A stretch of 28,775 bases of DNA from Minisyncoccota bacterium (GTDB lineage: Bacteria > Patescibacteriota > Minisyncoccia > Phycocordibacterales > GCA-2747955), in the NCBI GenBank assembly GCA_938010795.1, contig CALLVB010000079.1:1-28775 (forward strand), in the 5' to 3' direction. Every line of letters begins with the position of its first letter. The stretch's first letter is position 1. The position numbers and the translations under genes were made by a program. Positions 6,660-10,755 of the stretch are shown piece by piece. The notes under the pieces were generated by a model. It searched no databases, was not told the DNA's origin, and was given only the letters and a program-made list of their open reading frames with translations.

Positions 6660-7337
6660 ATGAGAATATACCCATCTGTTTTAGAGCAAACGCGTACTGC
6701 CATTGAAGACAAGATTTCCAGAGTACCTACGCAAATTAAAGAAGTGCAGATAGACATTTGTGATGGAGTGTTTGTTCCATCAAAAACGTACGGTTCATCT
6801 GGTACATTACGCTCACTTAAGTCTATAAATAGAATGACCAAAGGTAGAGAGCTGGAGTTAGACCTTATGGTGGATCTACAGAAAGCTGGGCGACGAAAAC
6901 GATTTCTCTCACACATCAAAGCCATTCATCCAGAGAGAATTATTATTCACTTTGGAACAACTGATAATTGGGGGTCTGTATTCACCCGGCTTACTCGCAG
7001 AGGGAAGATTGAGATGGAGGTAGGTCTGGGAATTCACCTATCACATACAAATCAAGATCTGTATGATTTGTTAGATAACTATCCATTTTCATTCATTCAA
7101 ATAATGGGGATCGAAAACGTTGGGTACTCAGGACAGGAATTTTCAAAAAAGACATACACCAAGATAAAAACATTTAGAAAACGATATCCAAACATACCAA
7201 TCTCTATTGACGGAGGAGTTAAAGTTGCAAATGCCGAAAAACTTAAGAACGCAGGCGCTACTAGAATCTGTCCTAATTCTGGTTTATTTAAGACTGTAGA
7301 TATTAAAAAAACCTACAAAGAATTTACAGAAATTTAA
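6660..7337 (+). CDS. rpe: Ribulose-phosphate 3-epimerase family protein (divergent metal ligands)
   Basis: QIDICDGVFVP, LDLMV, GYSGQEF, ISIDGGV; 225 aa; transketolase genes nearby. Confidence 0.85.
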   Translation: MRIYPSVLEQTRTAIEDKISRVPTQIKEVQIDICDGVFVPSKTYGSSGTLRSLKSINRMTKGRELELDLMVDLQKAGRRKRFLSHIKAIHPERIIIHFGTTDNWGSVFTRLTRRGKIEMEVGLGIHLSHTNQDLYDLLDNYPFSFIQIMGIENVGYSGQEFSKKTYTKIKTFRKRYPNIPISIDGGVKVANAEKLKNAGATRICPNSGLFKTVDIKKTYKEFTEI

Positions 7338-7395
7338 TATACAAATTTATAGACATACTCGTAGGAACGTCATGACACATAAGTCAGGTCTTGGT

Positions 7396-7429
7396 AATAA
7401 AAAACTGGCACATTCGAGATGCGCCAGTT
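7396..7429 (-). terminator. Intrinsic terminator of the 7449-7601 small ORF
   Basis: AACTGGC-A-CAT-tcgag-ATG-C-GCCAGTT hairpin; T-run follows on the minus strand. Confidence 0.65.
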
Positions 7430-7448
7430 GGTTGAGAACTATATGAGA

Positions 7449-7601
7449 CTATTCCTCATCTTTTTTTGTTGGGATTACTGGTGCTCGTTTTGCTCTTTGT
7501 ATTTCAGGTTGAATTTTAATCCATTCATGTATCAGGTGATGAATACCACTCAATACAATCAAACCTCCAATTACACAGATTATTATAGTGCCTTGTTCCA
7601 C
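7449..7601 (-). CDS. Unannotated 50-aa single-pass membrane microprotein
   Basis: SD AAGGAGG (7611-7617), 9 nt, GTG; MEQGTIIICVIGGLIVLSGIHHLIHEWIKIQPEIQRAKRAPVIPTKKDEE; own terminator; not in the ORF track. Confidence 0.7.
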   Translation of the reverse strand: MEQGTIIICVIGGLIVLSGIHHLIHEWIKIQPEIQRAKRAPVIPTKKDEE

Positions 7602-7686
7602 GATTAGCTTCCTCCTTAGTGATTGTAATCAGAGATAACTATCGCACACATATATAACTTTGACAAGCAATCTATTAAAAAAACGA

Positions 7687-7715
7687 TTGACAATTACTCT
7701 CATAGAATGTATTGT
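7687..7715 (+). promoter_or_regulatory. Sigma70-type promoter of the parB-like/ctrA-like operon
   Basis: TTGACA (7687-7692), 17 nt, TATTGT (7710-7715); SD AAGGAG at 7752-7757. Confidence 0.55.
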
Positions 7716-7765
7716 TATCTTTGCTGTACATTAACAAATCAAATTTTAAACAAGGAGTGAATATC

Positions 7766-8692
7766 ATGCCCAGCAACGCAACAGGGACACCGCTCCCCAT
7801 TAAATTGTCTAACTTACGTAAGTTTGAAGGACAACCTCGTCGACACTTTAGCGCGACAAGCATTGCTTCTCTCGCTGCATCAATTAAAGAAGAAGGACAA
7901 GAGACACCAGTGAGTGTTGTTATGTCTAAAACAGAACCGGGCACTTTTGTGCTCATTGATGGTGAAAGACGGATGAGGGCTTTTCAGCTCATTGCTGAAG
8001 ATACAAATACAGATCCAATAATATTGGCATTTGTTGACGTCGTCAAGGATCTTGAAGACCACTTCAGGAAATCAACGATTGCAAATTTGCACAGAGAAGA
8101 TATGCCTCCTCTTGATACTGGTGCCGCTTTGGCCCGTCTCAAGAAGACTAAGACTCTCGAGCAACTTGCCGACATGACAGGTAAATCTGTAACCTACGTT
8201 AAGAACTACATCTCTCTTGAAGCCCTCCCTGAGGAAGTTAAAGATATGATGAGCCCTGACCGTTCAAAAGAAAATCGTTTAAATGTTTCTCAGGCTATTG
8301 AAATCGCGCGCGTGCCCAATAAGGTATTGCAGATAGATTTAGCAAAAGAGTCTCTCGAAAGAGGGCTTGGTATGATGGAAACACGTAATCTTGCCGTCTT
8401 CAAATCGAGCAGTCGTGGCTATGTCCTTAAGGGGATTAAGCAACGGAATACTCGTGATGATTATCGTGTGATTGCTGGTTTGCCAGGACGCATTGAAAAA
8501 ACGCTGAGACGCGTTGATGAGATGTATATCGATGATATTTTCTTTGATCGAGATGATGAAGTGGGTGATCGAGCCAAAATGGCAAAACGTTATGGCTCAA
8601 TGATTGAACACCTTCAAAAAATCAAAGATAAAATCGAGACTCCTCGAGAGACTGCCGGAGACAGACCGAATCTGTCGATTGTATCTAATTAG
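7766..8692 (+). CDS. ParB/RepB/Spo0J family protein (orphan, no parA in the window)
   Basis: GQPRRHF, SIKEEGQETPV, IDGERRMRA (GxxRxxA), ANLHREDMPPLD, HTH TLEQLADMTGKSVTYV; start moved to ATG 7766 behind SD AAGGAG. Confidence 0.9.
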   Translation: MPSNATGTPLPIKLSNLRKFEGQPRRHFSATSIASLAASIKEEGQETPVSVVMSKTEPGTFVLIDGERRMRAFQLIAEDTNTDPIILAFVDVVKDLEDHFRKSTIANLHREDMPPLDTGAALARLKKTKTLEQLADMTGKSVTYVKNYISLEALPEEVKDMMSPDRSKENRLNVSQAIEIARVPNKVLQIDLAKESLERGLGMMETRNLAVFKSSSRGYVLKGIKQRNTRDDYRVIAGLPGRIEKTLRRVDEMYIDDIFFDRDDEVGDRAKMAKRYGSMIEHLQKIKDKIETPRETAGDRPNLSIVSN

Positions 8693-8704
8693 ATTGGAGG
8701 ACGT

Positions 8705-9427
8705 ATGCTCGTCTTACACCACGGTCTGGATAAGACCACCAAAGCATTTCTTGAATCTTTTGGAATGCAATTAATGCTCATCGAAGAAATTGAATCACTT
8801 GATGATGTTTCCGAATGGGTTAAGGCAACAACAGGTCCCGATGTGGTTCTGTTGGATATTGATGATCAACGTATAGGTATCTATGCACCGAGATTCCTTC
8901 GTTCTGAAGGGGTTAGTGTAAAAGTTGTTGGTTATACCAAGAACCCGGATTACCTCTCTGCATGGTCAGAAAGTCGCGCTCTATTTCTTGAGAACGGGGG
9001 AGACGATTTTCTTCGTGCCCCCTTAAATCCTCGTGAATTATCAGCAACAATTTCTGCTGTTTCTCGGCGTTCAACCGGACGTATGCTTGACGTGTTAAAA
9101 CACGTGGTGCATACAAATGGTCAAGATTCTATTCTCAAGATTCATCTTGGGATTAATCGCGTCACGGTCAATGATGCGCCAGTCGCTATGACAAACAAAG
9201 AGTTTGCCATGCTGCGCATGCTTGCTGAGCGTTCAGGAACTGTTGTTACTAAAGAACAGTTTCTCAACGGCATGTATGATGCTTTGGATGAAGAACCAGA
9301 GATTAAGATCCTAGATGTTTTCGTGTGTAAACTGAGAAAGAAACTCGGTCCAGCAGGTGCAGCTATAGAGACTGTATGGGGTAGAGGATATATGCTCACT
9401 AGTAAGAGCATTAAGTCTGCTGCATAA
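8705..9427 (+). CDS. ctrA: CtrA-like OmpR-family response regulator with degenerate receiver domain
   Basis: C-terminal [42 protein letters not shown] matches recalled alphaproteobacterial CtrA ([41 protein letters not shown]); VSRRSTG linker; ends in AA; SD GGAGG 8696-8700. Confidence 0.85.
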   Translation: [240 protein letters not shown]

Positions 9428-9449
9428 AAGATTAAAATTGATTTGTAGG

Positions 9450-9471
9450 AGCCCCTTTTGTAGGGGCTTTT
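9450..9471 (+). terminator. Intrinsic terminator after the ctrA-like gene
   Basis: AGCCCCT-TTTGT-AGGGGCT followed by TTT. Confidence 0.75.
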
Positions 9472-9497
9472 ACTTATCTATATAATTATTGTATAGT
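9469..9497 (+). promoter_or_regulatory. Sigma70-type promoter of the sciP-like gene
   Basis: TTTACT (9469-9474), 17 nt, TATAGT (9492-9497); SD GGAG at 9513-9516. Confidence 0.55.
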
Positions 9498-9524
9498 ATA
9501 AACAGTACATTTGGAGATTTTATT

Positions 9525-9779
9525 ATGGAACGTGCATTTTTTTATGACCTGCATGGTAATGTCATCGTGTCTGAGAATGATCTGCCTGCTGTTGATTGTC
9601 GTTGGACAGAGAACCGTAAGTTCATAGTCATTAAGGGAGTCGCTATAGGTATCTTTTCTCGTGAGTTGGTGCTTGAGCGTTATGGTATGACTGAGACCGA
9701 ATTAGATTCATGGACAGACAGGATGGACCGCCTTGGTCAAGATGGTTTAAAAACTACTCGAATTCGATCAATAAGATGA
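9525..9779 (+). CDS. sciP: SciP-like (DUF1153) small CtrA-inhibitory protein homolog, 84 aa
   Basis: DLPAVDCRWTENRK..VI..V..GI.S.E....RYGMTETELDSW.....RLGQDGLKTTRI follows the recalled DUF1153/SciP pattern DLPP..T.RW...RKA.VV..V.GGLLS..EA..RY.L..EE...W......G..GLR.TRI; start moved to ATG 9525. Confidence 0.85.
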   Translation: MERAFFYDLHGNVIVSENDLPAVDCRWTENRKFIVIKGVAIGIFSRELVLERYGMTETELDSWTDRMDRLGQDGLKTTRIRSIR

Positions 9780-9808
9780 AAGATTCGCCATAACTGGCGG
9801 ATCTTTTT
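9780..9808 (+). terminator. Intrinsic terminator after the sciP-like gene
   Basis: AAGATTCGCCA-TAAC-TGGCGGATCTT followed by TTT. Confidence 0.8.
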
Positions 9809-9918
9809 AGTTATGTGGCTCAGTATTTATTTTTTAAATTTTAAGCGTGTCTATGTGAACATAGATATATACAAAACAACTTTAATCTACGTCGTCCATG
9901 CTTTATACTACGTAGTAT

Positions 9919-10755
9919 ATGAGTATTACCCCAGAACAAGTTACAGAACTCGAGAAGAAAGCTAATGATATTAGGATTGATATTGTAAAGTCTCTTGCTA
10001 AGGCAGGAACAGGGCATACAGCAGGACCCCTAGATATGGCTGACGTATTCACTACACTCTACTTTTATTCTATGCGACATAATCCCAAGAAACCAGATTG
10101 GGAGGGAAGAGACCGTCTCGTGCTTTCTAATGGACACATTTGTCCAGTACTGTATGTCACAATGGCGCACGCAGGATACTTTGCTGCGTCACAACTAGAC
10201 ACCCTTAGGGTATTTGGATCGTCACTTCAGGGTCATCCACATAGGGAGTATCTTCCAGGAATTGAGACATCATCAGGACCGCTGGGATCAGGACTTTCAC
10301 AGGCTGTCGGAATGGCACTGGCAGACAGGATCGATAATGGTAAGACATCTGGAAAGTTTTTTTACTGTCTCATGGGAGATGGAGAGACTAATGAAGGACA
10401 AATTTGGGAAGCTGCAATGATGGCGGGTAAAGAACAACTCGGAAATCTTATTTGTGTAGTAGACAGAAACAACATTCAAATTGATGGATTTACAGAAGAC
10501 ATTATGCCACTAGAGCCATACGCGGATAAATGGGAGGCTTTTGGATTTCACGTAATCTCAATTGATGGACATAATATCGAAGAGATCGCAGATGCTATCG
10601 ATCAAGGTAAGGCAGTGTTTGAAAAACCAACGATGATTATCGCTAGAACCATTTCATCAAAAGGAGTACCAGCATGGGAACGAGATTTCCACTGGCACGG
10701 AAAACCACCCAAGGATGACGAACTACAAGTCGCACTTGATGCACTTAAAAAATAA
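9919..10755 (+). CDS. tkt: Transketolase, N-terminal (TPP-binding) subunit
   Basis: GTGHTAG, RDRLVLSNGH, LQGHP, SSGPLGSGLS, GDGETNEG..WEA...NN TPP motif, HWHG. Confidence 0.95.
   Translation: MSITPEQVTELEKKANDIRIDIVKSLAKAGTGHTAGPLDMADVFTTLYFYSMRHNPKKPDWEGRDRLVLSNGHICPVLYVTMAHAGYFAASQLDTLRVFGSSLQGHPHREYLPGIETSSGPLGSGLSQAVGMALADRIDNGKTSGKFFYCLMGDGETNEGQIWEAAMMAGKEQLGNLICVVDRNNIQIDGFTEDIMPLEPYADKWEAFGFHVISIDGHNIEEIADAIDQGKAVFEKPTMIIARTISSKGVPAWERDFHWHGKPPKDDELQVALDALKK

Follow-up and report, generated by a model that had tools for sequence, protein, structure and literature searches.

The stretch of DNA analysed here (the window) comprises the 28,775 nucleotides of contig CALLVB010000079.1 (C79) in the genome of a Minisyncoccota bacterium (assembly GCA_938010795.1; G000 below), and our subject is the gene at positions 8705-9427 of the forward strand, which encodes a protein resembling the response regulator CtrA. 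CtrA is the master regulator of the cell cycle, motility, and gene-transfer agents in Alphaproteobacteria, where it and SciP count as hallmarks of cell-cycle control; bacteria of the candidate phyla radiation (CPR), on the other side, are uncultured episymbionts with very few regulators. The genome of the window is of the CPR type and measures 867 kb, and its assembly is 89% complete (ribosomal protein L30 was not found in it). The ctrA-like gene stands in a row with a gene for a 308-amino-acid ParB/Noc/KorB-like protein (7766-8692, forward strand) and a gene for an 84-amino-acid SciP/DUF1153-like protein (9525-9779, forward strand), and all three lie in a cassette of 2,581 bp (7338-9918) between rpe (6660-7337) and tktN (9919-10755). 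We find that the ctrA-like gene encodes a CtrA-derived protein with a degenerate receiver domain and a preserved DNA-binding half, that its closest relatives form a subfamily of their own, and that the cassette was inserted into a genome in which no histidine kinase and no ClpX were detected.

Residues and fold of the CtrA-like protein

The open reading frame (ORF) at 8705-9427 is a real gene for a protein of 240 amino acids: a GGAGG lies a few nucleotides 5' of its ATG, the stop codon of the parB-like gene lies 12 nt upstream, and no ORF is open on the opposite strand. When the product was searched against Pfam, Trans_reg_C matched at 64.7 bits (E-value 8e-18) and Response_reg reached 18.8 bits, which is under its cut-off of 30.2. 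The top NCBIfam model was that of CtrA (NF045991), with 127.4 bits against a cut-off of 350 bits and a match confined to residues 95-232. The resemblance of the protein to CtrA is homology and not chance.

In an alignment with canonical CtrAs, the phospho-acceptor aspartate is retained as Asp-51 (VVLLD51; codon 8855-8857) and the conserved Ser/Thr is retained as Thr-78 (8936-8938). The loop following Asp-51 reads IDDQR where canonical CtrAs have L-x-L-P-D, the invariant lysine is replaced with Ala-105 (DDFLRA105P; 9017-9019), and the switch aromatic residue Tyr-102 is replaced with phenylalanine. At the other end of the protein, the recognition helix, which runs from Lys-201 to Leu-214 (9305-9346), and the wing IETVWGRGY that comes after it are near-identical to those of canonical CtrAs. 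In all of these respects except Thr-78 and position 102, on which it was silent, the alignment agrees with an initial annotation of this DNA, which had also read the end of the protein correctly as KSAA-stop. The same annotation had placed the loss of the acidic pocket at the segment HHG; the loss itself stands, and the placement does not, because Gly-7-Leu-8-Asp-9 align without a gap to Glu-7-Asp-8-Asp-9 of canonical CtrAs, and this excludes a register on His-5-His-6-Gly-7. The acidic pair is thus replaced with Gly-Leu (8723-8728), and Asp-9, at the non-catalytic position, is retained.

An AlphaFold2 (AF2) model of the protein, built on 39 homologues, has a mean predicted local distance difference test (pLDDT) score of 89.5; its N-terminal part is a complete (βα)5 receiver, and its C-terminal part a winged helix. 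The elements β1-α1 to β5-α5 of the N-terminal domain have pLDDT values mostly between 86 and 98, and predicted disorder is confined to residues 238-240. As revealed by Foldseek, the top matches of the model in the Protein Data Bank (PDB) are all full-length OmpR/PhoB regulators, among them HP1043, RitR, and GlnR, three atypical regulators known not to depend on phosphorylation. On the AF2 model, the Foldseek matches, and the residue profiles described below, the N-terminal domain spans residues 1-124 (8705-9076); on the Trans_reg_C and CtrA NCBIfam matches, the linker and the OmpR-type winged helix span residues 125-232 (9077-9400); and the translation ends in the tail TSKSIKSAA and the stop codon (9401-9427), in which residues 238-240 have a pLDDT of <50. 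A pseudo-receiver has been defined as a receiver in which at least one of DD (the acidic pair), D, T, and K is missing (PMC12632262). By this definition, and with DD and K lost from a domain modelled with the receiver fold, the N-terminal domain is a pseudo-receiver and the protein an atypical response regulator.

Conservation, ancestry, and distribution of the subfamily

A homologue search covering 5.8 billion proteins returned ~40 metagenomic clusters that are 35-71% identical over full length, nearly all of which show only Trans_reg_C in Pfam; canonical CtrAs, mostly of the Rickettsiales type, aligned to the C-terminal half only in that search. Residue profiles were taken over 39 aligned members of this subfamily. 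The position of canonical Glu-7 is Gly in 35 of the 39, that of canonical Asp-8 is Leu, Val, or Ile in 38, that of Tyr-102 is Leu in 37, and that of canonical Lys-105 is Lys in none. The acceptor position itself is variable (Asp in 21 members, Asn in 13, His in 4, and Glu in 1), so that the aspartate is replaced in 18/39. We note that the subfamily has acquired near-invariant residues of its own, namely Trp-87, Asn-97, and a further sequence motif.

Conservation is spread unevenly along the protein. Identity to canonical CtrAs is 24% over residues 1-86, 35% over the α4-β5-α5 face, and 68% over the recognition helix and wing, the last figure comparing with 72% within the subfamily. The α4-β5-α5 segment (residues 87-124) is the most conserved part of the N-terminal domain, with 69% identity within the subfamily. 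Many pseudo-receivers work by dimerising on α4-β5-α5 in the unphosphorylated state (PMC12632262). With catalysis lost while this surface and the DNA-reading head are both conserved, the pattern is in keeping with a factor that needs no phosphorylation and would pair through this face.

The origin of the subfamily was examined in a full-length maximum-likelihood tree of 105 proteins. In this tree, the CtrA clade is split from the other CPR OmpR-type regulators with 100% SH-aLRT support. A clade with 100% support, nested within the CtrA clade on a long stem, unites the subfamily with one CPR cousin that has a long branch (L106). Its nearest sisters here are two degenerate-receiver CtrAs from viral contigs of IMG/VR (L121 and L134; 95% SH-aLRT). 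In a tree built on the DNA-binding domain only, from which L106 was excluded, the subfamily is again one clade (99%) and Rickettsiales-type CtrAs are nearest to it; the viral sister relation is not recovered in this tree and may therefore be a long-branch artefact. As the two trees place it, the subfamily is CtrA-derived and monophyletic, with the full-length tree favouring a viral donor and the DNA-binding-domain tree a Rickettsiales-type one.

Two further sets of proteins bear on these branches. In the same order of CPR bacteria, L106 (genome G254) and L107 (genome G345) encode OmpR-type proteins with a similarly degenerate receiver, a related FLEQGGD / FLNAGG motif, and a non-CtrA recognition helix, and these may be distant cousins of the subfamily. 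Further, 73 viral contigs of IMG/VR (L119-L191) encode CtrA-type proteins. Some of these look canonical (L119, L123, and L124), some have degenerate receivers in which the acceptor Asp has become Asn or the Lys is lost (L121, L122, and L134), and some consist of the DNA-binding domain only (such as L131, of 136 amino acids). These viral proteins resemble the one studied here in being CtrA-type and, in part, degenerate, but they are without the subfamily motifs, and a ParB-like or SciP-like partner was found at none of the viral CtrA loci examined.

The subfamily is rare. Within the order, it occurs in 3 of 401 genomes (G000, G240, and G195), which belong to three different families, and it was met in none of 400 further genomes sampled across the phylum; it is thus a patchy accessory. 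So far it has been seen only in tiny-genome Patescibacteria (CPR, Paceibacteria-type), on metagenomic contigs, and on one phage-like scaffold, and the source of one member is listed by NCBI as Candidatus Paceibacterota. The ~800 genomes sampled from the order and the phylum all have listed sizes of 0.5-1.1 Mb, and this, the NCBI name, and the failure to find L30 jointly indicate a CPR/Patescibacteria host. The phage GenBank collection contained no member; the matches in it were response regulators of a generic kind and DNA-binding domains of the CtrA type. A feature search of the ESM Atlas gave generic Trans_reg_C clusters only. A scan of genome contigs with the subfamily alignment gave no subfamily locus, being swamped by canonical alphaproteobacterial CtrAs, which share the wing motif.

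The cassette and the genome that carries it

The ParB-like protein is encoded by the first gene of the operon that includes the ctrA-like gene. It matches ParB_N (37.4 bits), HTH_ParB (36.5 bits), and TIGR00180 (87 bits), each above the respective cut-off, it carries an intact GxxRxxA motif (GERRMRA), and its sequence relatives in the PDB are Spo0J, ParB, Noc, and KorB. With a ParB_N domain, the GxxRxxA motif, and a ParB helix-turn-helix, it is, as judged from sequence, a member of the ParB/Spo0J/Noc/KorB family; a second, better-scoring ParB is encoded elsewhere in the same genome, on contig C38. A promoter-like site for the operon, TTGACA-17-TATTGT, lies at 7687-7715 on the forward strand (10/12 matches, a consensus match only), and both of its hexamers are conserved in L099, the contig of the nearest relative. 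An intrinsic terminator-like hairpin of 12 pairs (6 of them G-C) followed by a T-run lies after the ctrA-like gene at 9445-9473 on the forward strand, and L099 has a hairpin in the same place. Upstream of the operon and divergent from it, the ORF list holds a reverse-strand reading frame for 50 amino acids with a hydrophobic N terminus (7449-7601); a gene for 49 amino acids occupies the same relative place in L099, and the two products are 63% identical over 24 amino acids.

The SciP-like protein, whose gene has a promoter-like site of its own (9469-9497) and is single-copy in the genome, matches Pfam DUF1153 with 65.1 bits, above the cut-off of 23.5. The NCBIfam model 'CtrA inhibitor SciP' (NF051866) gives 66.1 bits. 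The arrangement recalls SciP-CtrA of Caulobacter in that a DUF1153 gene stands beside a CtrA-type gene and the RW...W signature is conserved, and differs from it in that the score lies under the 100-bit equivalog cut-off and no CtrA box precedes the sciP-like gene.

We examined how constant the trio is at other loci. At 9 of 9 loci examined by homology, the gene immediately before the ctrA-like gene encodes a close homologue of the ParB-like protein (E 1e-45 to 1e-132), and the Pfam domains of the called genes reveal the same arrangement at two more loci, to which the SciP-like protein had led independently. A SciP-like gene stands beside the ctrA-like gene at 7 of 11 distinct loci, that is, here and at six others, which upholds the connection with SciP that the initial annotation had drawn. 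A context-free, exhaustive search of 1.8 billion representatives with the SciP-like protein pointed the same way: its two closest relatives both adjoin a ParB-like gene and a gene with Trans_reg_C only. A word-indexed search with the same query returned only the query itself.

The cassette occupies different places in different genomes. It was found after uvrC-ddl (L101), after uvrC (L116), next to rpoB (L207), and, on an NCBI assembly contig (L205:4001-6079), inside the atp operon between atpB and atpE, where the SciP-like gene is convergent with the CtrA-like and ParB-like genes. The most divergent copy, with protein P0040, lies among dozens of small same-strand ORFs on a 108-kb metagenomic scaffold (L117), near genes for HNH endonucleases, an NYN-domain protein, and a MazG-like pyrophosphatase (phrog_5658, E 1e-46), and this context looks phage-like from its gene content. 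PADLOC gave no defence-system match of note. As a side observation, the place after uvrC(-ddl) that the cassette takes in L101 and L116 is the neighbourhood of the canonical ctrA gene in G000, and genes of the CtrA type may have landed in the uvrC-ddl region repeatedly.

In G000, the genes flanking the cassette are colinear with those of two same-genus genomes and 59-93% identical to them (82-88% for TyrRS and 91-93% for TktN). The gap between rpe and tktN measures ~50 bp in a genome of the same genus (G001) and ~95 bp in one of the same family (G006), and in another same-genus genome (G002) it holds an unrelated ORF of 319 amino acids (L197:1673-2911). Independent Logan contigs, made with a separate assembler, bridge both junctions (6868-8200 and 8202-10221), and no contig of the bin is longer than C79 or nearer to the tetranucleotide centroid of the bin; the insertion is thus neither a binning error nor a chimera. 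The 2.6-kb cassette is an insertion between rpe and tktN. We saw no integrase, transposase, or flanking direct repeat at the insertion. Within the genus, the rpe-tktN spacer is a variable spot, being empty, filled with the 319-amino-acid ORF, or filled with the cassette. DNA of the locus is present in two marine metagenome runs from one study, and no RNA-seq run holds it.

G000 also encodes one canonical CtrA, on contig C68 (C68:7464-8153; L001:1501-2190), just downstream of uvrC-ddl. In this protein, EDD, Asp-51, and Lys-105 are intact; it ends in LAA, is ~60% identical to alphaproteobacterial CtrAs, and matches NF045991 over its full length with 310 bits. Synteny with two congeners stops after ddl, just before this gene, which neither congener has; the same-genus genomes have neither a canonical ctrA nor the cassette gene. 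The canonical CtrA contains the only true receiver domain in G000. No histidine kinase was detected in the 89%-complete assembly, in which the sole HATPase_c match is GyrB, and CckA/ChpT, DivK, and GcrA were likewise not found there, so the canonical CtrA itself appears to be an orphan response regulator without a visible phosphodonor. In the two other carriers of the subfamily in the order, G240 (99% complete) and G195 (98% complete), the subfamily gene was the only match at E ≤ 1e-30, a level that the canonical CtrA of G000 passes with 1.7e-39. We note in passing that the gene beside gyrB (C54:1863-3137; L103) encodes an RTX-like protein of >424 amino acids with Gly/Asp-rich calcium-binding repeats.

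The C-terminal Ala-Ala of Caulobacter CtrA is needed for its degradation by ClpXP, and the initial annotation had proposed the same control for the protein studied here. The tail is indeed conserved: of 39 relatives, 19 end in AA and 7 in VA ([AV]A in 26), Ala is the last residue in 31, and the G240 copy ends in NAA. This enrichment is far above what the frequency of Ala would lead one to expect, and it persists in lineages without ClpX. ClpP is present in G000, but ClpX was not found there. Nor was it found in G240 and G195 or in 11 further members of the family, one of which has a closed genome of 100% completeness. ClpB is the only class-I Clp ATPase in G000, with no ClpA or ClpC seen; the observations on ClpP, ClpB, and the tmRNA concern contigs C60, C92, and C12. 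The ClpXP part of the proposal is not supported by these findings. The conserved tail is probably functional, though not as a ClpXP degron. Given that ClpX was not found, that ClpB is the sole ATPase, and that the tag of the G000 tmRNA, ANAKIKSPYASMVPAFA, ends in PAFA, we infer that another protease handles non-polar C termini in this organism, FtsH or Lon being the candidates.

Proposed mode of action and competing explanations

The explanation that we favour, with a probability of roughly 0.65, is that the protein is a CtrA-derived pseudo-receiver regulator which acts independently of phosphorylation and which entered G000 as part of a ParB-like/SciP-like cassette. The protein would work without Asp phosphorylation, a proposal of the initial annotation that the sequence data support well: the subfamily as a whole has lost DD and Lys, the acceptor is variable, and no kinase was detected. 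The receiver fold and the conserved α4-β5-α5 face would probably serve for constitutive dimerisation or for partner binding, as in HP1043, ChxR, and GlnR, and the near-unchanged CtrA helix and wing would bind CtrA-type (TTAA-containing) sites. Activity would then be set by the abundance of the protein and by its protein partners, the likeliest candidate being the SciP-like protein, followed by the ParB-like protein of the same operon, and the conserved non-polar C terminus may give turnover through a protease other than ClpXP.

The site of Caulobacter CtrA is TTAA-N7-TTAA, and we looked for this motif at three scales. In the window, it occurs once against 1.41 expected, which is the level of chance, and far from the cassette. 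It is absent upstream of the parB-like genes of 10 loci and of the sciP-like genes of 7 loci, and the G000 genome has no excess specific to the N7 spacing (15 intergenic sites compared with 12-19 for spacings N3-N6). No gapped dyad is shared among the cassette promoters beyond what shuffled sequences give. The box searches being at chance or empty, it is solely the conserved helix and wing that speak for the proposed DNA specificity. Two sets of candidate sites were rejected. First, three TTAA-N7-TTAA sites on contig C48, considered as a regulon signal, turned out to be parts of a repeated element of ~36 bp. Second, a 13-nt inverted repeat that brackets the operon (7734-7746, ACAAATCAAATTT; 9434-9446, AAAATTGATTTGT) is within chance by our estimate; its upstream arm shares bases with a TTAAC, and the resemblance to L099 is only partial at the two sites. 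The ~36-bp element on C48 is an observation in its own right: it contains TTAAATTGCA(A/C)TTAA, occurs in three copies on this 3-kb contig (C48:300-560 and ~1900-1950; L192), two of which form an inverted repeat ~200 bp apart, and has looser variants of its 15-bp TTAA-N7-TTAA core on contigs C100 and C107. Its possible identities are a repeat element and a recombination site.

Several points weigh against the favoured explanation. Two of them are the absence of boxes upstream of the cassette genes and the lack of a genome-wide N7 excess just described. Further, a complex prediction for the CtrA-like and SciP-like proteins gave a score of 0.00, which we list here although it weighs neither way. 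Weak phosphorylation by small donors is possible, since Asp-51 and Thr-78 are kept and the reaction may survive substitutions at DD or K (PMC12632262), and a kinase could sit in the part of G000 that is missing from the 89%-complete assembly.

We considered four other explanations. In the first, the pseudo-receiver would be chiefly a docking module for the ParB-like CTPase clamp, and what the pair controls would be the cassette itself or some mobile element, not a regulon of the CtrA type, by analogy with KorB and KorA of plasmid RK2, in which a DNA-sliding clamp is held at operators by a site-specific repressor. The linkage of the two genes in one operon is invariant at all loci examined, the ParB-like protein is strongly co-conserved and resembles ParB, Noc, and KorB with GxxRxxA intact, one copy of the cassette lies on the phage-like scaffold, and the chromosomal sites differ from genome to genome. 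We nevertheless regard this explanation as doubtful: no parS-like or operator repeat is conserved among the cassette loci, and the 13-nt inverted repeat does not exceed chance.

In the second, the protein would be a decoy (as the initial annotation had also suggested) or dominant-negative form of the resident canonical CtrA on C68, competing with it for CtrA boxes or forming mixed dimers. In G000, the two proteins do coexist, their recognition helices are near-identical, and the charged α4-β5-α5 residues Asp-100, Asp-101, Glu-111, Arg-121, and Arg-122 are common to the protein and canonical CtrAs. On the other hand, G240 and G195 carry the cassette and have no match at the score of a canonical CtrA, which argues that the subfamily functions alone and that a decoy cannot be its general role; the same-genus genomes have neither gene; and the subfamily-specific α4-β5-α5 residues Trp-87, Asn-97, and Leu-102 favour self-pairing over mixed pairing. 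We consider a decoy unlikely.

The third holds that the protein is still phosphorylatable, with Asp-51 and Thr-78 taking phosphate inefficiently from acetyl phosphate or from a kinase, whether encoded in the 11% of the genome that the assembly lacks or supplied by a host cell. Both residues are present, G000 is 89% complete, and substitutions at DD, T, or K need not fully abolish the chemistry (PMC12632262). However, the two acidic residues that bind Mg are lost, as is the Lys, 18 of the 39 relatives have Asn, His, or Glu in the acceptor position while retaining all the other motifs of the subfamily, and neither a HisKA/HATPase kinase nor a second receiver was found in G000, so that we give this explanation little credence. 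Finally, that the gene is a decaying and now functionless relic of a horizontally acquired ctrA, as its recent insertion, its absence from congeners, and its degenerate receiver might suggest, is highly improbable, given an intact ORF with a Shine-Dalgarno sequence and a terminator and given ~40 diverged clusters (35-71% identity) that keep the new motifs, length, partners, and C terminus, which indicates purifying selection and not decay.

Returning to the phosphorylation-independent regulator, its closest known kinds would be CtrA by ancestry and proteins of the HP1043, ChxR, and GlnR type by analogy of action. With CtrA it has in common the OmpR-type winged helix (68% identity over helix and wing), its length, the Ala-Ala end, a SciP-like neighbour, and its place in the CtrA clade. 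It differs from CtrA in its receiver, which is without the acidic pair and the Lys, in its NCBIfam score (127 against 350 bits, on the C-terminal half only), in its CPR host, in which CckA/ChpT, DivK, GcrA, and ClpX were not found, and in the ParB-like gene that is always upstream. HP1043/HsrA of Helicobacter pylori, ChxR of Chlamydia, GlnR of actinomycetes, and RitR of Streptococcus pneumoniae likewise have two domains, a receiver fold with its catalytic residues lost, and no cognate kinase; definitions of pseudo-receivers and the mechanism of dimerisation without phosphate have been reviewed (PMC12632262). These four are resident chromosomal genes, whereas the gene here travels with a parB-like and a sciP-like gene in a mobile cassette of three, and there is no specific sequence kinship to them, as the protein derives from CtrA. 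What appears to be new is a CtrA-derived pseudo-receiver subfamily with an obligate ParB-like partner, the mobility of the cassette, and its presence in CPR bacteria; full-text literature searches found no paper linking CtrA to Patescibacteria/CPR.

Overall, an alphaproteobacterial circuit is not what one expects to meet in the Patescibacteria, and the locus would be a case of the transfer of a master-regulator module across phyla, probably with the involvement of phages. More tentatively, the trio could be a self-contained, kinase-free cassette that stems from the CtrA circuit of an alphaproteobacterium, or of its phage, and moves between CPR genomes, possibly on phages; a CtrA-derived factor, a CTP-dependent ParB-type clamp, and a SciP-type anti-activator might together impose a switch on genomes without two-component signalling, for instance over division, pili, or the attached versus the free state. 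The subfamily offers a natural experiment on what the DNA-binding half of CtrA can do without CckA/ChpT and ClpXP, and because the three small proteins of the cassette can be expressed and assayed in vitro, it makes gene regulation in CPR bacteria accessible to study in a way that few other systems do.

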